Counted from the first letter of the stretch, positions 1 to 18,100 are shown. The stretch is 64,000 nt of DNA from a virus (IMGVR_UViG_3300048593_000672:10688-74687); one strand, 5' to 3'. Notes: a model not told the origin generated them from the letters alone. Program-made: numbers and translations.

Positions 1-2
1 AG

Positions 3-530
3 CCTATTTTATTCTCTACCCTAATAGTTCAAGCCATTTTAGAGGGGCGTAAAACTCAAACTCGGAGGGTGATTAAATGCGACTTTTATGTTGAGAATGA
101 CCCACCTTTAACAGCATATATTCCATGCTACATTACTGGGGAGCCACAACCAGTTAAACTACCTTGCCCCTATGGACAAATCGGTGACAGGCTATGGGTG
201 CGGGAGACGTTTGCTTATCATCACACTGGACAGCTTTTTTACAAGACAGATATTCCAGTCCTTTGTCATAAAAACTGGAAATGGAAACCATCTATCTTTA
301 TGCCCCGCACAGCATCACGAATCACCTTAAAAATAACCGATATTCGTATTGAGCGATTACAGGATATTAGTGAAGAAGATTGTCTATCTGAGGGCATCAA
401 TTATCAAGGTAATGCGTATGATACTATCGGCGCATTTAGCGACTTATGGGATTCTATTAACGCTAAAAAACACCCTTGGCAATCTAATCCTTGGGTTTGG
501 GTAATTGAGTTTAAGAGGATTGAAAAATGA
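3..530 (+). CDS. ASCH/PUA-like phage protein, 5' partial
   Basis: Frame open from position 3 (PILFSTLIVQAILEGRKTQTRRVI), CPYGxxGDRLWVRET, WKPSIFMPR, NPWVWVIEF. Confidence 0.8.
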   Translation, partial: PILFSTLIVQAILEGRKTQTRRVIKCDFYVENDPPLTAYIPCYITGEPQPVKLPCPYGQIGDRLWVRETFAYHHTGQLFYKTDIPVLCHKNWKWKPSIFMPRTASRITLKITDIRIERLQDISEEDCLSEGINYQGNAYDTIGAFSDLWDSINAKKHPWQSNPWVWVIEFKRIEK

Positions 531-2494
531 CCGCTTTTTTATCAACACCCACACCACTAAGTTTAGTTAAGCCCAAACTAACTCCACCTGTCCTGCGGGA
601 AGACCAGTTAAATGTTAAGCGCCAAGGCTATCAGTTAATCCGTGAAGGCCACAAGCGCATTCAGTTCGTTTGCCCTTGTGGTTGGGGAAAAACTGTTTTG
701 GCTGTTAGTTTGATTCACGACATCGCTTTTAAGGCCCAGGAACAGAAGGGTGGTAAAGAACGTAAAGTTTTGTTTTTAGTTCATGCCACCTGTTTAGTTG
801 ATCAGACTATTCAACAGCTTGCTACTGCTGGTATTTGGGCGGGAATAATTGCGGGGGGCTATAAAGAAAACCGCCACAAAAACGTTCAGGTTGCGATGGT
901 TCAAACCCTTGTCAAGCGTGACATTAGCTGGTTTGTTCCTGATGTAATTATTGCTGACGAAGCCCATGAATCGCTTTGGTATAAGTGGTCATTAGAGCGT
1001 TTTCCTAAACTCAAAGACGGCCAAACCATTTTTACGGCTGGTGCTTTAGATAATGAGTTGAGAGCTATCGGTTTTAACATTGACGCGACTATTTTGAATG
1101 GCGATCGCTATCCCACTTTTGAAGAAGTAAAGCACCAGCACAAAGAATTTTTGAAGTCTAATCACCCCGATCGTGGGGGGAGCAAAGAAATTACCCAACA
1201 GGCTAATGCAGCTTGGGATGTTCTTAAAGACCATCGTGACTTGTTTGATAGTGGCGATCGCCCAACTAACGCTCCTATCCTGATCGGACTAACTGCAACC
1301 CCCTGGCGATTATCCAAACGTCAATCAATGGGTGACATCTTCCCAGTCCAAGTGTTAGGCCCCACGCCTGGAGAGATGGTTGCGCTAGGTCAAGCGACTA
1401 ATTTTCAACAGGGTTTAGTCCCGTTCGTTTACTGGGGTATTGGTGGGGCTGAAACTAAATCATTACGAGTCCCGAGGGGGGGATCGGATTTCACTGAAGC
1501 CCAATTAGATGAAAGTTTTGCCATTCCCGAAGTTGTCCAGTGTGCGGTGGATAATTACATGGATAAGTCAAAGGGTCGTCGGTTCGTCTGCTTCCCTGTC
1601 TCCATCCACCACGCCCAGATGTTAGTCCATGCCTTTACTCGTGCTGGTATTCCTTGCGCTCTTATCAAGGGCGATACTCCCAACGGTAGTAAAGACAAGA
1701 TTACGGACAAAGAGACCCGTAATTCTATCTACGCAAAAGTTCGTAAAAAAGAGTTGATGGGGATAATTTCGGTAGGCTGCATAAATTTAGGATTTGACCT
1801 ACCTGAGATTAGCTGTGTGATTGATTGCTGTCCAACTTTAAGCCGTTCCAAATATGTTCAGGGGGCTGGTCGGGGCCAACGGATCGCGCCCTGGGATGGA
1901 AAAGTTGACTGTCACTACCTCGACCAGGCGGGGAATGTGATGCGACATGGGCAGATCGAATCTATCCAGTATGGGGAATTAACACCAGCAGGGGAAATTA
2001 TTCCTGAAGAAGCCCCCATGAAAGAATGCCCTGAGTGCCATCGGCTTTTAGTCACCTTCCACATGAAATGTATTCATTGTGGCTATGAGTTTCCCGCCCC
2101 CGAAAAAGAGCTTGCTGTCGGTGATATGCAGTTAATCGTTAGGGAAGATGAAGAGGGTCTTTACTATGCCTTTAAGGACTTACTACGTCAAGCTTATCAG
2201 TTTAATAATGCTCCATATTGGGCTGAAATGCAAATCAATGAACATGAACTTTACAAAACCCATAAATCAGTTAAGAACAAACAAATTCAGCTTGACAAAA
2301 AAGGCAAGCATTTGTTATGGCATCCCGTTAAAGCTTGGTATCACCACGCAATTTTTGAAAAGCCCACAAAAGAGGACGAACAAGCCTATATGCAATACTT
2401 GCAGAATGTAGCATCAAAATACGCTGAACCCAAGCCCGATTGGTGGTTCCGCAATTACATGAAAAAGGAATTTGGGGAGGGTTGGAATGGATAA
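527..2494 (+). CDS. SF2 DEAH helicase with inserted J-domain and C-terminal Zn ribbon
   Basis: Walker A PCGWGKT, DEAH, LTATP, GFDLP, QGAGRGQR, CPEC..CIHC; HPDRGG insert. Confidence 0.92.
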   Translation: MTAFLSTPTPLSLVKPKLTPPVLREDQLNVKRQGYQLIREGHKRIQFVCPCGWGKTVLAVSLIHDIAFKAQEQKGGKERKVLFLVHATCLVDQTIQQLATAGIWAGIIAGGYKENRHKNVQVAMVQTLVKRDISWFVPDVIIADEAHESLWYKWSLERFPKLKDGQTIFTAGALDNELRAIGFNIDATILNGDRYPTFEEVKHQHKEFLKSNHPDRGGSKEITQQANAAWDVLKDHRDLFDSGDRPTNAPILIGLTATPWRLSKRQSMGDIFPVQVLGPTPGEMVALGQATNFQQGLVPFVYWGIGGAETKSLRVPRGGSDFTEAQLDESFAIPEVVQCAVDNYMDKSKGRRFVCFPVSIHHAQMLVHAFTRAGIPCALIKGDTPNGSKDKITDKETRNSIYAKVRKKELMGIISVGCINLGFDLPEISCVIDCCPTLSRSKYVQGAGRGQRIAPWDGKVDCHYLDQAGNVMRHGQIESIQYGELTPAGEIIPEEAPMKECPECHRLLVTFHMKCIHCGYEFPAPEKELAVGDMQLIVREDEEGLYYAFKDLLRQAYQFNNAPYWAEMQINEHELYKTHKSVKNKQIQLDKKGKHLLWHPVKAWYHHAIFEKPTKEDEQAYMQYLQNVASKYAEPKPDWWFRNYMKKEFGEGWNG

Positions 2495-2651
2495 AAAAGA
2501 TAACTATCCCAACAAACATAATCATACAAAAGAACCAATGCCAAGACACGCTTATTTAGCTTGGCACGACTGGGCTAAAGAGATGTCTAAAACCCACCGA
2601 CAAATTCAATGTCCAGACTGTAAGCTTTATTGTATTTGGGTAAAACTTTAA
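2487..2651 (+). CDS. Small CxxC protein (54 aa, not in ORF track)
   Basis: ATG overlapping the helicase end; MDKKD...QCPDCKLYCIWVKL. Confidence 0.5.
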   Translation: MDKKDNYPNKHNHTKEPMPRHAYLAWHDWAKEMSKTHRQIQCPDCKLYCIWVKL

Positions 2652-2663
2652 CAGGACAAAATC

Positions 2664-2846
2664 ATGCAATCAATCAACTTTGATCTCGGTGAACTATTAG
2701 TAATACAATTATTGATAGAAAGTATGCTTGAAAGTCAGCCAAACCCTCTTGTCTCAGTCGAAGACTTGATGTTGTCTATCGCATTACGATCTGCTCAAAC
2801 AAAAGTAAACGAAGCCATTAAAAAAGAAAATGAAGCCAATGCTTAA
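2664..2846 (+). CDS. Hypothetical protein
   Basis: AGGA RBS, operon spacing. Confidence 0.55.
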   Translation: MQSINFDLGELLVIQLLIESMLESQPNPLVSVEDLMLSIALRSAQTKVNEAIKKENEANA

Positions 2847-3034
2847 ACAACTAATCAACAAACTACTTTCCCTCGCTGGTATTAGTTTATGCAAATAATT
2901 AAATTTATCTTTTTTGTCTTTTGTGCCTACAGTTTAATCTTGTTTGGTTTAGGCTTTTACTATGGAGCAAGAGTCTATAAAATACAAAAACAAAAAGCTT
3001 GGCTTGAGTCTTTATTTTTACAATCATCAACAAA

Positions 3035-3592
3035 ATGAGAACCAAAAACTTTATCAAGACTGTCAGATCGTTAATGACTGAGACTGACCACCAAAAAGAA
3101 TTTGACAACTACGTTAAATGGGAGTCAAAAAAGACAGAGCAAGGCAACCGTAACATTGATCTGTTAGCTCAAGCTGTTAATCAAGCCGTAAGCAAAGTCA
3201 ATAAAACAATAGATGATTTTAGCCGCTCTATTATTGATTGCTCAGATCGGGTTAATGAGTTTAAGAGCCTCCTGCCTATTGAGGGAGAATACAAATTAAT
3301 AAGACTTATCTCTCCTAGTCGTCTTTTTATGGGGTTTGCTGATCCGACTTTTACGGTTCCCATCCCAGAATCGTGCCAAGTTTCCCCAATGAATGTGACT
3401 TGTAATTATGGGGGTTATAACAGCAATGGCGTATGGGGAATAGATTGGTATCGAACTGTGATGGGTGGCTTTGATGTTGATTTATCTGAAGCCAACGACA
3501 AAATGCACAATTGTCCCTATTTTGTCAACAGTTCCCAACTAAAATGTACAGCAAACCCCACTAATACTAATTGTTTGGAGTGTAATGAGTAA
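3035..3592 (+). CDS. Hypothetical protein with Cys-rich C-terminus (DUF6464-like)
   Basis: CPYFVNSSQLKCTANPTNTNCLEC. Confidence 0.6.
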   Translation: MRTKNFIKTVRSLMTETDHQKEFDNYVKWESKKTEQGNRNIDLLAQAVNQAVSKVNKTIDDFSRSIIDCSDRVNEFKSLLPIEGEYKLIRLISPSRLFMGFADPTFTVPIPESCQVSPMNVTCNYGGYNSNGVWGIDWYRTVMGGFDVDLSEANDKMHNCPYFVNSSQLKCTANPTNTNCLECNE

Positions 3593-4374
3593 TGCTATTC
3601 ACAACCCACGACCGCAACCTTATCATTGACAGCGAAACTTATTTAGCAGCCTACAGTTTTGAGCCAACTGCCATCGAAACAACCGCCACACTCGACCCCA
3701 ACAATGCAGAATTAAAGTCAATCTATAGCGATCAAATCACACCAGCTTTTGTTTTGGGTGGTGGCTTGCGCGACGCTAAAATCATTCACTTACAGGGTGT
3801 AGATTGGCGATCACTTCCCCCCACCGTTGAAGCCCATCCCTTTAAAGAAGTTGGGCAAGTCGGGAAAGTTACTGGCAAGGGTCGGACTGCTTTTACCGTA
3901 GAAAATCGCACTCGCATTAGTGCTGCTCTCGCTGGTGCTTCTGTCTTAAAGACCAGTCCACTTTGCTTACATAATTTCTGCGATGTGCCAAGAGTCGTCA
4001 TTGGGGGGGGCTGTGGATTAAGTATTGGCTACTATACTCATCAAGCTACCGTTGATACTGTCAACAGCCAGTCCAGCTTTCTCTTGTCTAGTACCAGTGA
4101 TTTTACCTATGGCTATATCGAATTTACGTCTGGAGAAAATGCCGGGTGTCGATTTGCTATTAGCACTGGCTACAACGGCGCAATTGAGCTTGCTGAAATA
4201 CCAGAGGGAGAAGTTAAAGTAGGGGATGAGGTAACAGCCGTTGGGGGCTGTGCCAAAACTCCAACGGCTTGTCAAGCCTATGGCAACTTCATAAACTTTA
4301 TGGGCATTCCCACCGGAGGGAGTTGGATACCTGGGATGGACGCAGTTCAAAATGCACCAATTGAGAGGGCTTAA
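3592..4374 (+). CDS. Tail hub protein, DUF2163/Phage_BR0599 (RcGTA g13-like), lacking first strand
   Basis: FTTHDRNL, SPLC..GC, FTSGENAG, GCAKTPTAC..GNFINFMGIP. Confidence 0.85.
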   Translation: MLFTTHDRNLIIDSETYLAAYSFEPTAIETTATLDPNNAELKSIYSDQITPAFVLGGGLRDAKIIHLQGVDWRSLPPTVEAHPFKEVGQVGKVTGKGRTAFTVENRTRISAALAGASVLKTSPLCLHNFCDVPRVVIGGGCGLSIGYYTHQATVDTVNSQSSFLLSSTSDFTYGYIEFTSGENAGCRFAISTGYNGAIELAEIPEGEVKVGDEVTAVGGCAKTPTACQAYGNFINFMGIPTGGSWIPGMDAVQNAPIERA

Positions 4375-4377
4375 GCA

Positions 4378-4686
4378 ATGACTGATAAACTACAAGCACC
4401 AGCAAAGGGTGATTATGTTTTAGCCACACTATATCCTGATGGCAATGCTGCCGATCCTTGGTTTATTGGCTATTACGATTGTCTGAGTAATGATAATCCT
4501 CCCCGTCATTTTATTTTAGATAATGAGGGAAAAAGAGACTATCACTCCTATCGAAAAGTGTCAGTAATCACACAAGATATTGGTGATTGGCTAATAAAAG
4601 AAAAAGACAAGCTTGAAACATTGAATAAAGACTTGTGGCCCATTGTAAATAGACTATTGAGAGGGCTTAATGTACCTTCAAGTTGA
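4378..4686 (+). CDS. Hypothetical phage protein
   Basis: Coupled ORF in plus-strand operon. Confidence 0.65.
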   Translation: MTDKLQAPAKGDYVLATLYPDGNAADPWFIGYYDCLSNDNPPRHFILDNEGKRDYHSYRKVSVITQDIGDWLIKEKDKLETLNKDLWPIVNRLLRGLNVPSS

Positions 4687-4876
4687 TCTTTTCGGAGAAC
4701 ACCAGCCAGTGGATAAACATGGCAATCCGTTGAAAATTGGGGATAAAATCAAAATCTCTAAAGATGATACTCTAGGTGCCACTGTTATTGGTTGTGAAGT
4801 CAATCTAGTTGTCTTTGACGGCTATCGTACAATGTCATTTGACTCTAGTTTATTGGAGAAAATTAACAATGACTAA
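4670..4876 (+). CDS. Small KOW/SH3-like protein
   Basis: DKHGNPLKIGDKI pattern. Confidence 0.55.
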   Translation: MYLQVDLFGEHQPVDKHGNPLKIGDKIKISKDDTLGATVIGCEVNLVVFDGYRTMSFDSSLLEKINND

Positions 4877-5303
4877 GGAACAATTTGCAGCAATGCTTGA
4901 TGATCGTCAATATGGCGATGAAATCACTACTGGAGAGTGTAAACTAGCTAATGAACATGGTTTGTTGGTTGTCTTTGGGGATAGTGATGATGGAGTAAAA
5001 ATGCGTGGTTTTTATCATTACTTCTTCAATGCAATTAAAGGTGGATCGTGGCAGTTCTTTCTGACTGACAATAATGAACTTGTTTTCGCTGCACAAGATA
5101 GCTTGTTTTCTTCTGCCATAGACAGGAGCAAGCCATTAATCATAGAAGCCAATTGGTGTCCAGATAATCTTGATACTTCATGGCTAATTAAAGCCAATGT
5201 GGATTGTGCAACTTTTGACATCTTTGAAGATGATGAACTATTTTGTCGGGGTGTCGTTCTCGATAAGAAAGATATTGTTAAAGCATTATTAGGAGAGAAT
5301 TAA
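4869..5303 (+). CDS. Conserved phage hypothetical protein
   Basis: GGAG RBS before ATG 4869; GLLVVFGDSDD, ATFDIFEDDELFCRG. Confidence 0.7.
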   Translation: MTKEQFAAMLDDRQYGDEITTGECKLANEHGLLVVFGDSDDGVKMRGFYHYFFNAIKGGSWQFFLTDNNELVFAAQDSLFSSAIDRSKPLIIEANWCPDNLDTSWLIKANVDCATFDIFEDDELFCRGVVLDKKDIVKALLGEN

Positions 5304-5470
5304 CCATGATTGACTTTACACCCCTTGAATTACAAGTTATTCACACAGTCTTACGATTAACCAATGAGAAAAGTCCTGAGCCACTTCCAGAGTCTAGTCG
5401 GGAATGGGCAGATGCTATGAGGTCGGCTATTAAAAAGATTGAAGACTTTGCCAAGTCGGGAGATTAATCA

Positions 5471-5761
5471 ATGACAACTAATACCAGTAAAGGAATGATT
5501 GAAGTTGATTGGGGAGTATCAATAGAAATAAACTCCTTAACGGTTCAGCAGCCAAGTGGATTACAGGGAGGGATTTTTGTCGAAGCTCTTTATTGCCATA
5601 ATGGGCAAAAAAAATGGCGAATTAAATCCGAAGCTTATTTTTATGGAAAAGATAAAACATGGATTGATTTTTACGACAAAGAACAATTTACTGACACTTA
5701 CTGTTGGGACGATATGGTAGAAGCATTTTTATTTGCTCAAAAACATTTAATTGAAAATTAG
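5471..5761 (+). CDS. Hypothetical protein
   Basis: GGGAG RBS, ORF. Confidence 0.6.
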   Translation: MTTNTSKGMIEVDWGVSIEINSLTVQQPSGLQGGIFVEALYCHNGQKKWRIKSEAYFYGKDKTWIDFYDKEQFTDTYCWDDMVEAFLFAQKHLIEN

Positions 5762-5929
5762 GGGGTTAACAATGCCAGACAATAACTCAACAAAGTATAG
5801 TATCAGCCAAGCTTTTAGATTGGCTGGGCGAAAAGCTGCAATTGCACTTCAGGAAGAACGTCATGAATTTGATAAGCCTAAAAAGCAAAAACCTAAAAAA
5901 CAAAAACCTGAATGGATGAGGTTGGATCA

Positions 5930-6199
5930 ATGAGCAATAAAGTTTTAAAGCCTGCAAAAGATTTAGTTGTTGGCGAAAAATTCAACTTTAATAATGGGGA
6001 AAAACCTTCATATGTGTGGGTAGTTGACAGCATAAAAAAAGACCCTCGATTCCCCAACGAAATAGAACCAATGGATGTGTGGGAAATCACTTATCACATG
6101 GAGCATCCTGATATTCAATCCCCCCGTCAGCATTTTGTCCACGCTGATAAAAGTGATCTTGTTTTAGCGATAGTTAACGCACCCCCGCCCGTAATTTAG
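5930..6199 (+). CDS. Hypothetical protein, convergent with tape measure
   Basis: ATG coupled to the upstream stop. Confidence 0.55.
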   Translation: MSNKVLKPAKDLVVGEKFNFNNGEKPSYVWVVDSIKKDPRFPNEIEPMDVWEITYHMEHPDIQSPRQHFVHADKSDLVLAIVNAPPPVI

Positions 6200-9100
6200 C
6201 CAACTGGCGATCGCGTTCAATCTGACTCATTGACTTGCCAAGATCATTCGTGTTAGCCACTTCAATCTTAATGGTTTGATTGAAGTTGTTAACAGTTCCC
6301 TCGCTGGTATTAGTCTGAGTAGTGTTGGGGATGTAGGAAACAGGGCCGCCCTTGGCAAAATTCTTAACATCCTTGGCCATACGTTCTGACCAGTCTTTAT
6401 AGTTGCGGTAGTCGCTGGCTTCGTTTGCAGAAATCACATACTCGTCAGCATTAAGGACGGCCAGGATGGGCCGCTTACCACCCGACTGCGACCTCTCCCG
6501 ATTCATTGCTTGACTAATGCCTTCTACCAGTCCCCCACCCGCATAATTATCAATCTTGAGGGGGTCAACGGGGCCGCCGTCGGCAAAGTTGAACGCATGA
6601 CTAATCATTCCTGTAAAGCCGCCCGATAAGCTGTCAGCTATTGATTGACCCGCACTGGCATTACCAGCGTTAAACAGATTGCCAAAAATATCACTGCCAG
6701 CATTGATAAAGCTACCGCCGCCGCTAACTGTTAAAGCACCAGCAAAAGCAGATAGGGCTGTAGTCGCTTCTGTCAGTCCCAAAATAAAACCGGCCATGGC
6801 GGGGTCAGTGGAAGTAATACCAGCGAGGAAAATGTTATCCATTGCTTGGCTGGTATTAGTCGTTGATTCCGTCAGGCTAGTAAATGCACTACTCAAATCA
6901 ATTGTGTCGGGTAAAGCTTGACCTGTTGTTAATGTATTGCTTAAGTCAAAAGGCACAATGTTGTTGGCCGCTATGCTTGCCCCCCGCTCACCTAGTCGCG
7001 TAATTACATGGGGATAAAATTCTTTGTTATCCAGACCGAGCATTGGCCCAACCCATTCAGCGATCGCATTTTGGAAGGGTTTGATAGCTAACTGCTCTAA
7101 CATCATCCCCAAAACAAGATCCTTGACTTTGTTGAGCGACTCCCCTAGTCCCTTAGACTCTAGGATCGCGCTACGCAGCCCCGAACTAAACTCTTTTAGA
7201 CCTGGGATAGCGTCAACAAATGATCGCTTAATATTTAACTCACTAATCTCAGCCTGAAACCGCCGCATTTCACTAGCCTGTTGAGGCGAGTAAGCACCAT
7301 CCCGAATCTGCTTCTCTAAATCAACTCTGGCTTGAGCCGCTTGCATCCGAGCATTAATAATCGCACTGGGGTCAATTAACGTTCCCATTCCCCAATCATT
7401 CTGCGCCCCAACGTCATAACGGGTTTTGTAGAGGTCAGCTTGAATTTTGGCATAACCCTGTTTAGATGCCATAATTTTATCGAGTCGCAACCAGGCTTCA
7501 GTGGCTCGTTTAGTGGGTTCTTCTAACGCAGCCATCGCCTTGGATTGCCTGTCAATTTCTTCCCGACGAGCTTGCATAATGGGAATGCTGTCGGTATAAA
7601 GTTTTAAATTGCTTTGATAAACAGACATAGCTTGCAACTCTTGAGTAGTTGCTTGGCGACCAGCTTTCGTCAGTTCAGCTTGCTTGTCAGCTAAGGCTTG
7701 TGCCGCAACCGCCGCACCAATATAGGCATCATCCATCTGTCTGCCAAGATTCCGCAATTCATCATCAAAATCACGGTTCATCTGGCGGAATTGTACACTA
7801 ACTCCTTCTACAGCCAGGTTAATCTCATCAGCAGCCGTTTTATAGCCCTTGCTGTTAATGGCTAACTCACGATACTTGATATTGTTATCCTCAACTTTTC
7901 GACTCAAGTTAAGAGCCATATCTTGAAGGGATTGTAATTGCTGTTGGAAGGCATTGTTGAACTTGACCACCTCAAGATTGCCTTGCAGATCAAGCACAGC
8001 CCGATTGACCCCAATTGTCGCATTCTTAACATCATTAATCTGACCAGCCGTATTAGTTAAACTACTCGTATCTTGTACAGTGATTGGATTTTGATCTGTA
8101 ATTTGCTGTAAGCCGCTATAGTCATTAATTGCCCTTGGCTGGTATTTTGTAATAAATGGACTTTGTACGTTTGGCAGGACATTTCCCCCATTCATATCAA
8201 CTTGAGGCTCAAGTTGAGAAGGTTGATAGCCTGGGAGTGTTTGATATTTTTTAATGTTGGGGTTGACATTGGCATTGCTACTACCAATCCCCTTGGCCGC
8301 ATCAACTCTTGCCTGACTTTCCTTAAATTGTTTGGCAATTGCCTCAGTGCGTTTTTTCCAATCCTTCGACGACATCCTATCAATAAACTTAATGCCTTTT
8401 GACTCATAAAACTCATCAAGTTTAAAGGCTTCAGGATAAAGTTCTTTTTGATATTTGATAATATCTTCTAATGGCTTGCGGCTAATATTATTTGGATCGT
8501 TCAACTCAGCTTGACGTTTTCTTGCCTTCTCCTGTTCGATCCGTTTGGCCCGCGCAGCAGTAGTGGCATTAGTCTGGAAAATTGCAGATCCCATATCACT
8601 AATACCCTCACTGGCATCAGCGACTAGCCACTCTTTGGGGGCCGCCGATCTCATTTGATTGTATAAGATACCCCTTACTCTAGATAAAGACTTCAAGTAT
8701 TTAGATCCGTAGGCTGGATCTGTAGCATAGCGACCATAGCGACCCTTAAAGTCACGGTTGATAAAATCTTCAGGAGTGCTAAAGAAAAAGTCTTTTTTAA
8801 GTTTAATTGCTGCGTACTCTAAGCCCTGTCCGTAGGTTTTAAAGTGCTTGTTATTGCCAGCATCATCGTTGCCATAGTTCAGTGGGTTTTTAGTAAACTT
8901 CCCTCGTCCCTTGGTTCCAAAATGGCTTTCAATAAATGCTTGAGTTACTAAGGCATCAATGCTAACTCCTGACTTGGTAGCAGCATTTTTAAAATCCTCA
9001 ACTGTCATTTGAGAACCATACTGGTTCAGCAATCTTGCTAAGTTTTTCTCCCATCCCATCGATTGAGTAGTAGCAGCCTGCGCCGGAGCGGTCAAGATGT

Positions 9101-12100
9101 TTTGCGCTGGTACTTGTAGTTGATACGATGTTTTAACTTGCTTTGGTGCAGCAAGATTTAATCTCATCCCCCCGCCATACTTGCCCATCAGCCCGTTTAG
9201 TCCATTAACATCCCCAGGTGCGTAGTATTTAGTTGGTTGTACGACCGCACTTGGCTGACCAATCGGGACTGAGAACGGGACTCGTTCAACTACCGACTCA
9301 CCGTAGCGGGGATCGATATTAATACCAGCAGAGGGATTGTATGAGAGAGGGGCGGCTGGCAGTGAAGGGAGCTTGTTTTGATAGCCGCTATTGGGAGCTT
9401 CTTTCGTAATCCGGGTTATGATTTGCTCTAGCTCACGCCCTAACTTAATAGATGACGACTCCATCTGCATCATCATTGACCTAAACTGTTCATTGAGCCG
9501 GATGATGCTACGAGTGCGTTCCTCTTCGGCCCGCAGTTGTTTCTCCTGTTCATCCCGAATGCGCCGGAGAGTCGTCACATACTCTTGGCCAACCTGACGT
9601 TGTTTCTCATCAAGCGATCGCCCTTCCCCTTCCAAATTGCCGATATTCGCGAGGAAGTCAACAAAGATACTGGCAGTCTTTTTACCAATACTGTCGGGTT
9701 GGAAGCTGATGGATTCAACAGCCAGCGTAGCCTTAGCTTGTCTCAGTTTCTCGCTGGTGCTTTTAAGTTCATTCTGAGCGGCCAATAGTTGACCTTCCAA
9801 ATCAAACTGTAAATCAGCCCAAGCCTCCTGCAAACCGCGAGTCTCGATAAAGGCATTACGGGCTGAATCCTGCACAGACCAGCCAAAGTCACGGACTTGT
9901 TGTTGCCAACCAATCTCAGTCTCTAGCACAGAGCGGTTAAAGTCCTCTACCGATTGACCCAAGCCCCGATAATACTCTTCAGTGTTCTGTCCCGACTGCA
10001 TCACTGCAAACTCAGCTTTAGCTACAGCTTCATTAGCACTTGCTAGTTGTTTAGCTAACTCTACTGGGTCTTGGGAGTTATCCTTAAACAGTGCTTTAAC
10101 ATCTCTTAACTGACGTTTAGCTGTAGCCAAGTCATTGTAAGCAGAAAAAGCTTGAATATCTTGAGTGCCAATTTTGCCCTTACTAGCAGCTTGATACATC
10201 TCAATATTCGTGTTGCTAGCCGCAATCTGGGTGTTAGCTTGACGGATAGCATTGAGTCGTTGTTGCTGTAGCTTTTCAAGATCAATTTGAGCTTGTAAAA
10301 CTTTGCCCTCTAACTCATTCGCTTGCTGGTATTTTTCTTTAAACTTAATAGATTGCTCTAAGAAAGTTTTTAGTCCCCCGCTAATACCATCCCCAGATTC
10401 AACCAACGCCTTCATTGTCTCCACGCTGGTATTCATGATCATGTCTAGGGGGTCTTTATATTTCTCCCCACCACGACCTCGTAACTCAAGCCGGTTCATT
10501 GCATCCTGAGCGACACTTGGCTCTAGTCCATTTAAAGCAAAACCTTTAAATGTTTCAGCATCTTGTTTAACAGGCAATAATTCCCGTTTGGCAGTAGTTA
10601 AGTTATCTAAAGCTTGCTGGCGTTGTAAATCAATATCATCAAGTTTTTGATTAAGCCGAGCTTCAAGTAATTGATTATTACGACGACTTGCTAACCCCTG
10701 ATTGTATTCAGCGATATTAGCACCAGCAGAAGAAACTAATTGACTAGCTCCTTGTAAACCAGGAATCTTTTGGTTGATAGAACCAGTGTGCATTCTGATT
10801 GCTTCTAGCCTGACGTTGGTATCAGACATTAGCTTGGCAATGACTTCTAGCTTTGCCTCACGTGCTTGAGCGTCGGGATTCTTTTTGACTGTCTCCCTCA
10901 TAGCCTCATAAGCTTTATTCATCTGCTCTAAAGCAATCTGATTGCCAAAAGTTTCATTGACGGCTTTTTCTCGATCCCCCACCTTTACTGCCAACTCAGC
11001 ACTAAGGTTTTTAAACTCCTCACGGTTGTTACCACCCAATTTACTGTTATTAGCTAAACGAGTTCTGATAACAGCAATCTCTCGATCTAGCTGAGAAATA
11101 TCAGCTTTACCTTTTGCAAGGTTTTGGGGATTAGCGTAATTTGCATCCGCCTGTTCGATCAGTCTTTTGCCATAGCTAATACCCCTGTCAACTTGCTTGA
11201 GGTCTTCCATCAAATCCCGCCGATCATCCTTATCCATGCGAACGGATTTGTAGATATTGCCTTTTTCGTCTCGGTAGTCAATAACGATGTTATTTATGCC
11301 ACTATTTGGCGCACTTGGATCAAAGCCAAATGGATGGGTGTAGTTATTTAGAACACCACCAAAAACTCGTTGGGCAAAGTCGCCAACTCCAGTGATAGGT
11401 GTTGGATTGCTGCCACCAAGTCTTGTGTAAGTTGGATCATTTCGATCAACCTTATTGGGGTCTTTCATCTTGCCAGTCAACGTATTAGTAGCTTCCAGAT
11501 TATTAATCATCTGCTCTAATTCATCGTTAGTCTTTTTCAATTCCCCGTGATAGGACTGCCAAATTTTAGTTCCTTTATCAATCGCAAATCCAATAGCAGC
11601 AAAAGCAATTAGTTGGGGGGCGATCGCATATAAAGCACTTCCGATACCAGAAAGCGCACCAGCTGTAGCAGCTAAACCCCTTACCGCCACATTGCTAGAC
11701 GATCCACTGATAACCAGGTTCGTGTTTAGTTTGGCTAGTCCAGTATTTAAGCCATTGAGTATCCAGTTATTAGTCATAAACTCAAGCCCCAAAACCTTGA
11801 GCGCAATCGTTACAACTCTTGAGGCTGTTCCCGTATCCAGTAAAGCAAAGACAAATTTAGCCCCAAGCATCGTTACTAAAAGTCCCAGACTCGCCGTTAA
11901 TCCCGTCGCTACACTGTTAAGCGCATTCATCCCACCAACAGCTATATCCATTGCTGGCTTGCCAACTCCCAAGATTGTTTCTCCCATCCGACCCTGTAGT
12001 TTTTCCTGGGCGTTCTGGAATCGGGCGATACTACCGAGCGGCCCTTCCTTCACCGTATTAATCGGTAATGTTGCTTCGTAGGCTAGTTGTTTGGCCAAGG

Positions 12101-15100
12101 GTTGCAAGTCTGTTTCGGGAAACATCTTGCTATTTTTCATCTGGTTGGTTAACTGTTCATGGGTTAATCCCTGGGAACGAGCCATAGCCCCGATAGCTTG
12201 GGGTAGTACCTCCGCAAGCTGCGAACGTAGTTCCTCGGCCATTATTTCGCCTTTTCCGATCATCTGAACTACACTGAGGAACGCCCGTTGCTGTTCATCG
12301 GGCGTTGCACCCTGACCAACCAACGCAGCCGAGAACCCTTCAAAGATTTCTTGTACCTGGGGCGCAACGGTGGTGTTGGCGGCGGCGACTGTTAACTTAG
12401 TGAATGACTGAGCAGCAACCAACGCATTAGCTCCAATCTCATCAGCGTATTGGGCGATCTCCTTTAATTTACTGGCTGCATTAATGCTTGAGTCGTAAGT
12501 TAAAGCCGCTTTCATCCGTTCCAATTGCAGGGCGGTATCAATACCAGTGCGGGCAAAATCAACGAGCACCTGTTCGACCTGCTGAAAGCCCATGTACATC
12601 AACAGCCCACCAGCAAAGCCTTTGATGTTTTCAATGATGCGGGCAAGACCAGGCATTTTTTCTTCTAATGCCCCCATGATCCGACCTAAGCCACGAATGC
12701 CAGCACCAGCGGCACCGGCCCCCGCTTCAATTTCATCAAGAATGTTGTTAAACCATTCCCAAAATCCCTTATCGGCATTTTGAGGTGCTTGAGCAATCCC
12801 CGCAACCATATTGTTAGCACGACTATTAATAAAGTCTTTGGCATTATCGCCCATGCGCCGAGGTGCTAAATCATCAACAGTTAAACCACGACGAGGCGGC
12901 ACTGGATTGGGAGAAGCACCAGCAGGGGGAATAGGTGGTTTGCGGGGGGGTTGTCCATTGCCACCACCAACAGGAACGTGATTATAAAGTCCAGCCGCCA
13001 TAATGCGATTGGCTTCTGCAATTTGCCAGGCCTGACCTGTTAGGGGAGTAGAATCTCTCACTGGTCTTGTTGCACTTGTCTGTTGCTGTTGAATTTCCGA
13101 AACCCACAATTGAAGAGCATCACCCCATACGTCATCACCATGTAGCGGGGGGGACTGACTTGCAATCACCCTATTATTAGGAGGTAATGGTGGAGGGACA
13201 ATTCCTCTCGCTGGTGTTTGTGCCTCGGATAGAGGAGGTAGCGGTAGAAGATTAGATACCCTGTCTTGTGCAACAACAGCATTTAATTCTTTTTCATAAA
13301 TAAAGGAAACAGCCCTTTTATAACCAGTACTGTTAATATCCCTCCCGATATTGATGTTTTTAATATCGCGAAGATACAAGTTTTTAAGACCTAAAGCCTC
13401 TTCTTTGTAATTCTCAATATTTTTCCAACCCTCTTTTTCTAATTGGGGAACTGGCAAATCAAGCATCTCAATTGATTGGATAGCACCATCAATACCAATC
13501 TTGTAGCCTAAGACTAAATTCTCACCAATCTTGATAAAGACTTTACTGGGCGATTTTTCCCCCAGAACATCCATCGCGGTTGTGATAAGTTTTTTGCTGG
13601 TGTTGGCGATCGCAGCAATCGGCTCACCCTCCGAACCAGTAATACCAGCCGTCAGACCTTTATTGATGTTTAGACCGACTCGTTCCATCTTTCCATAATT
13701 TTCATCCCCTTCCATCTCTTTAAAGCCATATCCGGCCCAAAGCCTTTCGCTACGAGCATCTATTGGGGATGTACGAATTGTGTTGGAGCCGACTACACTA
13801 AACAATTCTTGCATCCACAAATCAAGTTGTTTGCGAAGGGCTGCACGAATAGCGGGGTCTTTAGTTGGTTTAAAATCTCCATTAACCATTAGATCGGATA
13901 GATACCAACCCATAGTCTTTGACACATAAGCGTGTAGATCTAGCTTTTGCCCTTCAACTACTGCACTTCTAGTAAACCTAGTTCCTACTTCGGGGGGTTG
14001 AATTTGACTGTCTTTTGTTGTCAACTCTATTCTTGGCATAGAGGATTCAATTGACAGCTTTTTGTTGATGTCAAGGCTGGCTTTTTTACCTGTAGCAATG
14101 ATTTTATCAAGATAAGAAAGTATATTTTTCCTGACAGAATCAAAGGGTAATGTATCTGTGTCAGAAGCATTTGGCAGCATACTCTCTGCCTCTAGAAATG
14201 CTTGTTTTGCTGGACTATCTTCAGTTTTGTTTACGACTCTTCTTTGAAAGCTTGAGTGATTAAAATCTTTAACGATACTACTGACATTCGCATCTTCCGC
14301 AAGTCCATAGTCAATCGCTCTTAGCTGCCCTTGTTTATCTATTAAAATATTGCCACCATGTAAGTCATTGTGTGCAATACCATTTTCTATTAAAGACTTT
14401 TTGAGTCGAATAACTTCTTTAAAGAAAGACTCTGGATACTTCCCGCCATCAGAAATATTATAAGCATCATTGGCAGTTTGCCCCCGAATCAGTTCCATTG
14501 CAATCGCAGCGTCACTAGAGCTATATCGCTTTGATCCCAAAACCCTTGGGCCAAGTCCAAGCTCTCCGGCCCTTCGAGATAGTTCTATTTCCTTGTCTGT
14601 TATTTGTCCATGTTTTAAGGCATATCCTCCCATATCATAGACAGTTCCATAAAGACCTTCCCCCAGTGTTTTTATCCCAGGAATAGTCTTAAATTCCCAT
14701 TTATGATCATATAATTCCTGTTCTGTAGGGATATTTATGGCACTTTCGTTTTTTTGTATCGGCTGCTTTGTTACTGTCCTTTGTTTGATACTATCCAAAG
14801 CAGCTTTATTCCCACCACCCCATTCATAATAAGTTTCAAGTGTCTCAGCTAAGTTGTCTGCAAAATTATGACCAAATTGCTTAGATTGGGCAAGTTCTCT
14901 TTTAACAATGCTTTCAATATCGCCAATAATCGCCGCCATTTCTTTCGGCACTTTCTGAGCAACTTGGCTAAAGTCTAAGCCTTGATCTAGTCCAGCAACA
15001 ATGTCTTGACCAATCTCTTTAAATACCAGCGAGGGAGAATTACTTTTGAGCGTCTTTTTACTACTAGTAATCATTTCCCGCAACATTTCAATCGTTGCGT

Positions 15101-18100
15101 CTTTCGGCAAATGACCCCGTTCCTGTAATGCTAATAAAATGCCATCAGGAATAGCGACACCCATCCCATGCGCTTTTTTGAGGATGTCTTTTGGATCAAC
15201 AAACTGGTCAAATTGACCTTTCCAACCGCCCAATATTTTGTTAGTTGAAACAAGACTACCTTTGCTGCTTAATGCTTGGTCTGGCAGCCCTCCCAAAGAT
15301 TGTTTTTCTGCAATAAAGTTTTTAGAGTAGTTGGCTATACTACTAATACGTTCAACGTCAATAATGTCATTAATGATCCTAATTTGATCGTTAATATTTT
15401 TGCGATTAGTTTTTAATGAATCAATTAACTGCTTAAGCTTAACTTCTGGCGAGTCTTCCCTTGCTGGTGCTAGTGCGTAAGCATCCCCACGACTGGGAGG
15501 TAGGGGTGATAAAACTGTCGTTGCAGGGGGTAGGGCATTCGTTTCTTTTGCCAGTAATTCAGCGTAAACGTGCTCAACTGGGCGGGGCATTAATCTGGGC
15601 AGGCTAGTTATAGCTTTGTTGCCAAAATTGCCGATTCCCGTTAACAGGTTGTAGGTCTTATCCTCAACAGCACTAGGCAATAATGCCAGTGGTTTTGCTA
15701 CTTGATTTAATGCAAATTGTCCTACTCCACTCGCGGTCCGACCACTCAGCAGATAAGTCAATATAGTTCCAGCCCCACCCAATGCAGCCGTTCCCGCATC
15801 ACCAATTCCAGAGCCTAAAGCCCCCATTCCTGGAATACGACTCAACCAACTAGCAGCAGTCGCGGCCCCACTCGTTAATCCTTCAGGCAATAATCCCGCA
15901 ATTCCACTACCGACAGCCCCAATTCCATGACTCAATAACGGTGTGACAACCCCGCTAGAGATAGCGTCCATTCCCGCCCCTAACAAAGGTAGATCGTGTC
16001 CCGCCATGCCTAAGGCGATCGCGGGGGAAATAGCTTGAGTTACCTTCTTAGCAGCTTGAAGATTTACTAATCCAAGGCTTACGACCTGAACAGTATCAAA
16101 AGCATATTTTTCTATTCCCTTAGCCACTCCGTAATGCTGTGATGCAATAGTGCCTAGCGATCGCATCATCTTGTTAAACAAGCTGACTTCTGGGGAAGCC
16201 AAAGCACCAGCAGGGGAAATGTCATTGGCTGGCTGTTGATCGTTTACGCCTGGGGGATTTACTTCAGAGGGATTACCACCACGACCAACCATATCCCGAT
16301 GAAAAGCAGCAAGTTCTCGATAAAGCATCTCTAAATACTTTTCGGCACCGCTTAAATTGCTTTCGCTGGTATTAGTAAAAGCTGACTCGACAGGGTTATT
16401 ATTTTCCGTTGCTGGTGTTTGGGACTCTACGGGATTATTTGCTTTTTCTGTTACGGTACGCGAAAGATTAGGCAACTCTCCAATCATTCTGACAAGCAAC
16501 GATGGGTCGGATGGGTTTCTAATGCTTTCGTCAGATGGGAGTCCGAGCGTATTTATTCTGGTAGCTCCAACGCCCTGCGATTGAAAAATGCCAGATAAAG
16601 AAAATTCATCGGTAGGAAAGATGGGAATATTTGCTTTTGTCTCTTCAGAAAGATTGCCTTTATTAGCAACAAACTCATCCATGACCGATTGCAAATACTC
16701 ATACATTTTGACAATTTGATCTTGATAAATACCAAATTGACTACCCTTCTCTTTAAACCACTTAATTGTTTCATGAGATAATTGCCGATTCAATCCTTTT
16801 ACAGCTTCAGGGTTTAAGTCCCTCGCAAAATAACCAGCAAGAGAAGAATCGCCTGACTTGAAAGCAGCCAAGTCTTGATTGGTTTGTTTTGCCTCTTCTT
16901 GATATTTTAAATAGCCGCCTAAGTCACTAGGGTTTTCAGGCATTTTAACGCCAACATCAGAAAGTCGTTTTGCTAATTCAACTTCTATTTCTTTGAAATA
17001 TTGGTTTATCAGGTCGTGTAACGCCTTACCACCAGTTCTTGTCAGTGTTACAGTCGCCGCACCATGCTCAAAAAAGCGAGTAATCAGTGATTCAACGTCA
17101 AAATTACCCCCCGCACTTTGACTTGTCTTAAAGCCTTTAAATGGAGAATTAAGGTCAAATTCACCTGTTTTCATCAATGATTTTAATTGTTCCCCAATCC
17201 CTATCAACTCATATAAATTACCCGTTGATTCCGCTATTCCCGCTTCTGTCTTTCGATTTAATCCAGTAGGACGTTCACTACCAATCGCATTGTAAAAAAT
17301 AGGGGGAAACGCAGGTTCCTTAAATAAATGTTTCCAGTCGTGAGCATCCGTCCCAGAAAGTCCTATTGTGTTTAAGAATGAAGCACCTGGCGCATTAAAT
17401 CCCCTCCCCAAACCAAGTCTATTACCAAATGTTAGGGGGTCGCCTTTAAGAATTGCTGATTGATAATTTTGGGGGATAACACCAGACAAGCCCAGTGTCG
17501 GATAAGACATTGCCAACGTATTTGTTTGCAAGCCCATGTATTGAGCAGTTCTGGCGTAAGACATTGCATCCATCCCGCCAGACATTGAATAGCCAACAAA
17601 ACGACCTTCTTTCCCCTGACTGTTAGCTGCTAAAGTATTTGCTAATGCTTGAGTTGCCGCTATCGATGTTGCCATTGGATTAATGGCAAATAACGCTTGT
17701 CTTGCCACATTCATTACCGTATTGGCAACATCCTTATCCCCCATCAGATCGGGGAGAATGGTCGAAAGTCCCTTCTTTATTAGTTCTTCTGCTGGTCTTT
17801 TTTCGCCTGGCAACGGTGCATCTGAGTTGGGATTTTCGACAGGAATAAAGCGAACGTTAGGAGCAAAAGGTTCAAGGGCCATTGCTATTTGACGACCACC
17901 TTGACCCCCCGCAAATTGACCTCCACCCCCTACACTTACTGCGCCACTGTAATTTTGTAAGTCAGGAAAATTGCCTTTTATTTGATCGTAAAGCTGCTGA
18001 GCTTGTTTGCTAGTTCGATAAGTCTGAATGCCTTGAATTAGCTTTAATAGTGGTTGAAATTCCGCAATAATGGGATTAATAACATTGTCAACTATCCCTT

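Follow-up and report, generated by a model that had tools for sequence, protein, structure and literature searches.

The window analysed here is a 64,000-nucleotide stretch (bases 10688-74687) of the 74,687-bp IMG/VR virus record IMGVR_UViG_3300048593_000672, which is rated 94% complete and represents an uncultivated lake phage. Close to one end of the window lies the gene for a 655-residue superfamily 2 (SF2) helicase, P0001, whose ATPase core is interrupted between motifs II and III by an insert that sequence searches and structure prediction place in the J-domain family. The features of this gene, in positions counted from the first letter of the window, are as follows.

527..2494, plus strand: open reading frame for the RadD-like SF2 helicase P0001 (655 residues), recognised by its ResIII, Helicase_C, phrog_16 and RadD matches
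671..694, plus strand: motif I (Walker A), CPCGWGKT, residues 49-56; G54, K55 and T56 are nearly invariant in relatives
956..967, plus strand: motif II, DEAH, residues 144-147; D144, E145 and H147 are invariant in relatives
1022..1264, plus strand: net insertion relative to insert-less helicases, residues 166-246, about 81 residues, delimited by motif spacing and alignment
1043..1252, plus strand: J-domain proper, residues 173-242, from predicted models and from PDB sequence, profile and fold matches
1163..1171, plus strand: HPD (His-Pro-Asp) tripeptide, residues 213-215, followed by RGGS (the HPDxGGS type of Tim14 and the T antigens), read from the translation
1292..1300, plus strand: motif III, TAT, residues 256-258; T256, A257 and T258 are invariant in relatives
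1547..1885, plus strand: RecA-like domain 2 (Helicase_C), residues 341-453, including motif VI, QGAGRGQR, residues 445-452, from Pfam and alignment
2021..2095, plus strand: four-cysteine zinc ribbon, residues 499-523 (C501, C504, C515, C518), as in RadD; matched by UPF0547 and found in 19 of 29 relatives
2129..2491, plus strand: C-terminal helical domain, residues 535-655, conserved across the family, from alignment and the predicted model

Judged by its motifs, its predicted fold, its zinc ribbon and its C-terminal domain, P0001 belongs to the RadD-like SF2 helicases. Pfam recognises ResIII (residues 23-149, E = 5.4e-15), Helicase_C (residues 341-453, E = 3e-10) and a zinc ribbon (UPF0547), and comparison with PHROG returns the DNA helicase family phrog_16 (9e-62). 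Motifs I, II (DExH), III (TAT) and VI (QxxGRGxR) are all intact and are carried by two RecA-like domains. The best solved relative is Escherichia coli RadD (phmmer match to 6jde, E = 5.9e-13), and Foldseek searches with P0001 fill ranks 1-8 with RadD entries at E-values down to 1.4e-18. RadD (6jde, 7r7j, 8h5y) shares with P0001 the two RecA-like domains, the zinc ribbon and the C-terminal domain, but it is about 19% identical, is devoid of the motif II-III insert and is a cellular repair factor rather than the product of a phage replication-module gene. RadD is characterised by binding to SSB and by speeding up RecA strand exchange; the phage has an SSB gene of its own. On its sequence, P0001 is an active-looking helicase of the phage replication module.

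To define the insertion, we compared the distance between motifs II and III in helicases extracted from 79 related viral contigs and from 76 loci of prokaryotic genomes. The two motifs are separated by 108 residues in P0001 and by 103-110 residues throughout the insert-bearing clade, versus 21-35 residues in nearly every relative without the insert (some 25 viral and 70 prokaryotic loci), so that the extra segment is a real net insertion of about 81 residues. It begins right after a conserved FPKLKD stretch, which is also present in insert-less cyanobacterial relatives (for example, those of Floridaenema and Aerosakkonema), and ends about nine residues ahead of motif III. The insert lies in the surface connection that leads from the Walker-B strand (motif II) to the motif-III strand of RecA-like domain 1. 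P0001 has no Hint or homing-endonuclease Pfam matches and the insert is therefore not a self-splicing element. The initial annotation had proposed that a phage SF2 helicase carries a J-domain in the stretch from motif II to motif III, with DEAH at 956-967, HPD at 1163-1171 and TAT at about 1292; these coordinates are exact, the peptide it quoted occurs verbatim in P0001, and the spacing comparison, together with the searches described below, bears out the assignment, with helices I and IV present in addition to the helix II, HPD and helix III that it had named.

The same loop accommodates other sequences elsewhere in the family. A few relatives carry unrelated insertions of 51-94 residues at this site: low-complexity repeats of 60-94 residues in P0029, P0032 and L086 (Okeania), and a 51-residue segment in L116 and L162. 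The motif II-III loop thus appears, from these alignments, to be a permissive insertion hotspot. Some HPD-positive relatives (L036-L043 and L053; for example L037:3001-5790, protein P0022) harbour a Hint and LAGLIDADG intein near motif I, and a single helicase gene such as that of L037 holds both the intein and the J-domain, at different sites. Individual Okeania genomes also contain at least five nearly identical copies of the insert-less helicase (L099, L100, L102, L103 and L104 in Okeania sp. KiyG1; several in Okeania sp. SIO2B3), which suggests that it rides there on a multi-copy mobile element.

Several independent sequence searches identify the insert as a member of the J-domain family. 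Against the Pfam DnaJ model (PF00226, gathering cut-off 27.8 bits), P0001 scores 16.3 bits over its full length and reaches 19.8 bits (E = 8.7e-4) when the insert is searched alone. Orthologous inserts pass the cut-off: those of three related phage genomes score 31.7-32.4 bits and that of L037 scores 27.9 bits, and DnaJ is matched in 14 of the 29 aligned relatives (best E = 1.9e-9). The Pfam match anticipated by the initial annotation is thus found, above threshold in orthologues but below it in the window's own protein, and for this reason the case for homology rests on profiles and orthologues and not on the score of P0001 itself. With the insert as the only query, phmmer retrieved 12 PDB sequences, every one a J-domain, with Tim14 (E = 8.5e-4) and murine polyomavirus large T as the best matches. 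With a profile built from an alignment of seven inserts, all 37 PDB sequences matched at E <= 0.01 were J-domains: DNAJA1 came first (3.6e-7), and the others included polyoma large T (7.3e-7), Thermus thermophilus DnaJ2, Sis1, E. coli DnaJ (5nro_B, 2e-4), CbpA and Tim14. When a 76-residue segment was compared with 1.84 billion representative proteins, 34 were retrieved at E <= 1e-3; in five of these, all helicases, the segment occupies the same internal site, and among the other matches that were tested nearly all are bona fide DnaJ-domain proteins (Pfam E down to 1e-33).

The residues expected to contact Hsp70 are also present. Helix II of the insert displays lysines K202, K206 and K210 at positions i, i+4 and i+8, which would line up as a basic face. 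The lysine or arginine located seven residues before the HPD histidine is kept in all HPD-positive relatives and aligns with the conserved basic residue of solved J-domains. Indeed, the HPD, this basic residue and an AW(D/E)xh...LF signature spanning helices III and IV are retained across helicases that are only 32-60% identical.

The predicted structure agrees with these searches. The full-length AlphaFold model has a mean predicted local distance difference test (pLDDT) score of 86, with values of 83-95 across the insert, and comprises helix I (residues 171-180, with the ELRAIG motif), an extra short helix (185-192), helix II (198-211), helix III (220-235) and helix IV (238-241). The HPD sits in the loop between the helices spanning residues 198-211 and 220-235, and the modelled insert is a four-helix J fold with an antiparallel helix II/III hairpin. 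We compared a model of the isolated insert (pLDDT 76) with 48,161 PDB representatives without prefiltering, and ranks 1-5 were all J or J-like domains: Tim14 (Z = 6.4, root-mean-square deviation 2.2 over 60 residues), the polyoma T-antigen J-domain 1faf (Z = 6.3, 78 residues), SV40 small t (Z = 5.5), NDUEG6 and the Rap1 DnaJ-like domain. Foldseek likewise matched the insert to 1faf in the PDB (probability 1.00, TM-score 0.68), and its PDB and BFVD lists are headed by T-antigen J-domains and phage J-domain proteins with E-values of 0.01-0.04 and probabilities near 1. The fold evidence draws its weight from this agreement with the sequence evidence.

To trace the history of the insert, we computed helicase-core trees with the insert columns removed (FastTree with 90 rows and IQ-TREE with 54 rows). 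Both trees unite 18 of the 19 representatives that carry the insert in a clade of their own, supported at 100%. The nineteenth, P0037, falls outside this clade and has a longer, canonical HPDLNPND loop; it shares the helix III-IV signature. We considered for P0037 a second acquisition of a J-domain, independent of the first. Forcing all 19 insert rows into a single clade is not rejected by the approximately unbiased (AU) test (p = 0.229), so a single acquisition of the insert is compatible with the sequences but not proven. Among one genome per prokaryotic species (about 186,000 species), the insert occurs in three contigs only, all HPD-less.

The helicase gene stands at the end of a replication module that encodes Sipho_Gp157, a single-stranded DNA-binding protein (SSB), a 977-residue PrimPol and DUF3987 primase-helicase, C5 and N6 DNA methyltransferases and a helix-turn-helix protein; baseplate, tape-measure, tail and terminase genes lie downstream of it. 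Immediately upstream is

3..530, plus strand: phrog_874 gene, function unknown, whose stop codon overlaps the helicase start codon (ATGA)

and this overlap suggests that phrog_874 and the helicase are translationally coupled. No Hsp70 gene was found in the genome of this phage, and any Hsp70 partner of the helicase must therefore be that of the host. In HPD-positive relatives, the helicase insert is the sole J-domain of the genome. Elsewhere, an open reading frame at 6174-19076 (minus strand) encodes an unusually large multi-domain tape-measure-type protein of 4299 residues, which combines a TMP_3 tape-measure match with a protein-kinase/ABC1-like stretch (residues ~1519-1600) and a glucosaminidase-like stretch (residues ~3359-3462).

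The host is probably a cyanobacterium, as indicated by the HIP1 octamer GCGATCGC, which is present at 36 sites in the window (for example 1101, 1254, 6207 ... 63543) versus 0.29 expected. HIP1 is a signature of many cyanobacterial genomes and of their phages. The relatives closest to the helicase among those without the insert come overwhelmingly from cyanobacteria, and the helicase gene itself is found again in lake-water metagenomes of many studies, the sequencing runs listed for it being of DNA and none of RNA. We considered whether the HIP1 sites at 1101 and 1254, which both encode GDR and bracket the J-domain core, could be scars of its acquisition. We rejected this idea and regard the pair as probably a coincidence, given that the window has four other HIP1 pairs within about 250 nucleotides and that only this lineage and a relative 93% identical to it have the GDR codons. 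In L002 (genome bases 1-11300), the phage encodes three DNA methyltransferase-like genes beside its replication genes, of the phrog_799, C5-cytosine and D12-class N6-adenine types (940-1572, 6807-7829 and 8138-9091). Since HIP1 contains GATC and CGATCG, such phage enzymes may imitate the HIP1 methylation of the host.

J-domains dock ATP-bound Hsp70 and trigger hydrolysis, upon which Hsp70 locks onto a nearby polypeptide. This established mode of action, combined with a canonical J-domain whose HPD is intact, leads us to propose that P0001 is a class-C (type III) J-domain protein that recruits host DnaK to the nucleoprotein complexes of the helicase itself, a reading that follows the DnaK recruitment in cis suggested by the initial annotation and that we favour with moderate confidence. 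By analogy with other J-domain proteins, the insert would use its basic helix II and HPD loop to dock ATP-bound DnaK, whose ATPase it would stimulate, and DnaK would then clamp onto polypeptides situated beside the helicase. Candidate clients are partners of the helicase, such as the phage SSB, the PrimPol/D5-type primase-helicase or recombination proteins, or else proteins that block the DNA track. The phage would thereby gain a private, DnaJ-independent route by which the nucleoprotein complexes of replication and recombination are put together, remodelled or taken apart, analogous to the action of DnaJ and DnaK on the lambda O-P-DnaB complex and to that of the T-antigen J-domain with Hsc70.

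A number of observations weigh against this proposal. The Pfam DnaJ score of the window's own protein (16.3-19.8 bits) stays under the gathering cut-off, and neither the structural Z-scores (about 6) nor the Foldseek E-values (0.01-0.04) are more than modest, as expected in absolute terms for a helical domain of 70 residues. More pointedly, relatives with the insert have lost the HPD on at least three occasions. First, a 4-residue deletion (HHPDHGG to H-AE) characterises the lineage with the most contigs (about 40 in IMG/VR) and the largest clusters, one of which has 126 members; its sister L006 still reads HHPDHGG, at branch lengths of 0.02-0.04. Second, the histidine is replaced by proline in P0018/L023, the sister P0024 being intact. 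Third, the domains of P0027 and P0025 have decayed. Five near-complete HPD-less phage genomes encode no other J-domain, with neither a stand-alone J-protein nor an Hsp70 to compensate. This helicase family thus does not depend strictly on DnaK stimulation, which certain hosts or lineages can do without, and the insert must either serve a further purpose for which the HPD is not needed or serve none. The expectation in the initial annotation that the HPD would be conserved accordingly holds in part: all deep branches of the insert clade and 16 of the 29 cluster representatives have the tripeptide, but it is missing from several lineages, including the most abundant one.

The HPD-less phages L008, L010 and L034 have 0-1 HIP1 sites in 84-88 kb and the HPD-positive L041 has 24, and the HPD-positive L005 phage has none. 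Some HPD-less relatives were binned with Bacteroidota metagenome-assembled genomes (Flavobacteriaceae/Crocinitomicaceae). Loss of the HPD may accompany a change of host.

The repeated HPD losses keep two other explanations alive. According to the first, which we consider unlikely, the insert has the J fold but has ceased to signal to DnaK, or never needed to do so, and acts as a structural spacer or as a docking surface for another phage or host protein. Tim16 provides the model, as an HPD-less J-like protein that only partners Tim14. Such a role would account for the 13 of 29 insert-bearing representatives that are without an HPD and yet keep the rest of the domain (ELxxxG, AWExh and LF) as well as the helicase motifs, and for the HPD-deleted lineage, which is the most abundant of all and has no replacement J-protein. 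However, both the phage studied here and all deep branches have kept the HPD intact together with the conserved basic residue of helix II. The large HPD deletion, for its part, arose very recently, as its short distance to L006 indicates, so that retention of the domain in that lineage says little about long-term selection. Moreover, the older HPD-less domains, those of P0027 and P0025, are visibly decayed, which is expected if an HPD-dependent function had maintained their sequence.

The second explanation, which strikes us as quite unlikely, holds that the J-domain is aimed at host physiology and that the helicase is a mere carrier: DnaK would be hijacked or titrated, so that the heat-shock sigma factor is stabilised or a DnaJ/DnaK-dependent anti-phage sensing pathway is disturbed. 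It has a precedent in Rki of phage RB43, the only characterised phage J-domain protein, which acts in this manner (PMC3486835), and the other phage J-domain proteins are likewise small stand-alone proteins. DnaJ has in addition been reported to mediate phage sensing by bNACHT25, according to a passage of PMC12619734 that cites this result. There is, on the other hand, no obvious need for a J-domain devoted to host takeover to sit within the ATPase core of a helicase, and the insert is kept at one and the same site in that core throughout a clade whose helicases have diverged to about 35% identity, which argues for a functional coupling with the helicase. That the insert is a helical linker which happens to contain an HPD is very improbable and effectively refuted, because in spite of the sub-threshold Pfam score of the window's own protein the profile, orthologue, library-wide and fold searches converge on J-domains alone.

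If P0001 does recruit DnaK, the position of the insert makes a more elaborate arrangement conceivable, since in the ATPase core the J-domain takes the place of the crossover that links the Walker-B strand to the motif-III strand. The nucleotide- or DNA-bound state of the motor might then expose or hide the HPD face, such that DnaK, with its capacity to strip proteins, would be delivered only at the place and time at which the helicase engages DNA. We offer this gating model tentatively and think it improbable. Were it correct, P0001 would be a prokaryotic-virus counterpart of T antigen with an allosteric coupling tighter than that of any known J-domain protein, and the natural HPD-deleted lineages would be its switched-off variants.

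The architecture of P0001 invites comparison with polyomavirus large T, as the initial annotation had put forward. Both are viral polypeptides that join an HPDxGGS-type J-domain to a helicase of the replication module, and large T is among the top profile and fold matches of the insert. Nevertheless, in large T the J-domain is N-terminal and is followed by a linker, origin-binding domains and a superfamily 3 (AAA+) hexameric helicase, whereas in P0001 it is internal (residues 173-242 of 655), the motor is RadD-like and of the SF2 type, the host is bacterial and the partner would be DnaK. P0001 is an analogue of large T antigen and not a member of its family, with no homology outside the J-domain; the parallel therefore stands for the architecture only, even though polyomavirus J-domains are among the nearest structural look-alikes of the insert.

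Other J-domain systems resemble P0001 in more limited respects. Tim14 (Pam18) is the best single-sequence and structural match to the insert, and the pair that it forms with Tim16 (Pam16), one partner HPD-bearing and the other HPD-less, mirrors the coexistence of HPD-positive and HPD-less helicases; these proteins are, however, membrane-anchored subunits of the mitochondrial import motor and belong to an unrelated context. The first characterised phage J-domain protein, Rki (gp057w) of the T4-like phage RB43, is also a class-C J-domain that depends on host DnaK, but it is a small stand-alone protein that stabilises sigma-32 and has neither a helicase nor an insertion architecture (PMC3486835). 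The functional logic that we propose for P0001, namely Hsp70 remodelling of phage replication complexes, is that of the lambda and P1 systems, in which host DnaJ and DnaK disassemble the O-P-DnaB complex and activate RepA, respectively (reviewed in PMC8215388). The J-protein is in those cases the free DnaJ of the host, whereas the phage described here has built a J-domain into its own helicase.

Among isolated phages (50,697 GenBank records) we found neither the architecture of P0001 nor a close homologue of the helicase, the best match being 27.5% identical and encoded by Cylindrospermopsis phage Cr-LKS4. Twelve phage records in the same set have J-like matches, all to hypothetical or unannotated proteins and none annotated as a helicase. 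Our literature searches found no account of a J-domain inside a phage or bacterial helicase; such a protein may be listed in one of the large J-domain architecture censuses.

J-domain proteins decide where Hsp70 acts, and ever since the work on lambda the replication of phages and plasmids has served as the classic example of remodelling by DnaJ and DnaK. If its J-domain is functional, P0001 would be the first analogue of the T-antigen design from a bacterial virus and would offer a compact system in which to ask what Hsp70 does at a replication fork or a recombination intermediate. The family would also supply a ready natural mutant series, consisting of domains with an intact HPD, with the 4-residue deletion, with the histidine-to-proline change and in a decayed state. 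Finally, the finding would bear on how cyanophages use the expanded DnaK and DnaJ sets of cyanobacteria.

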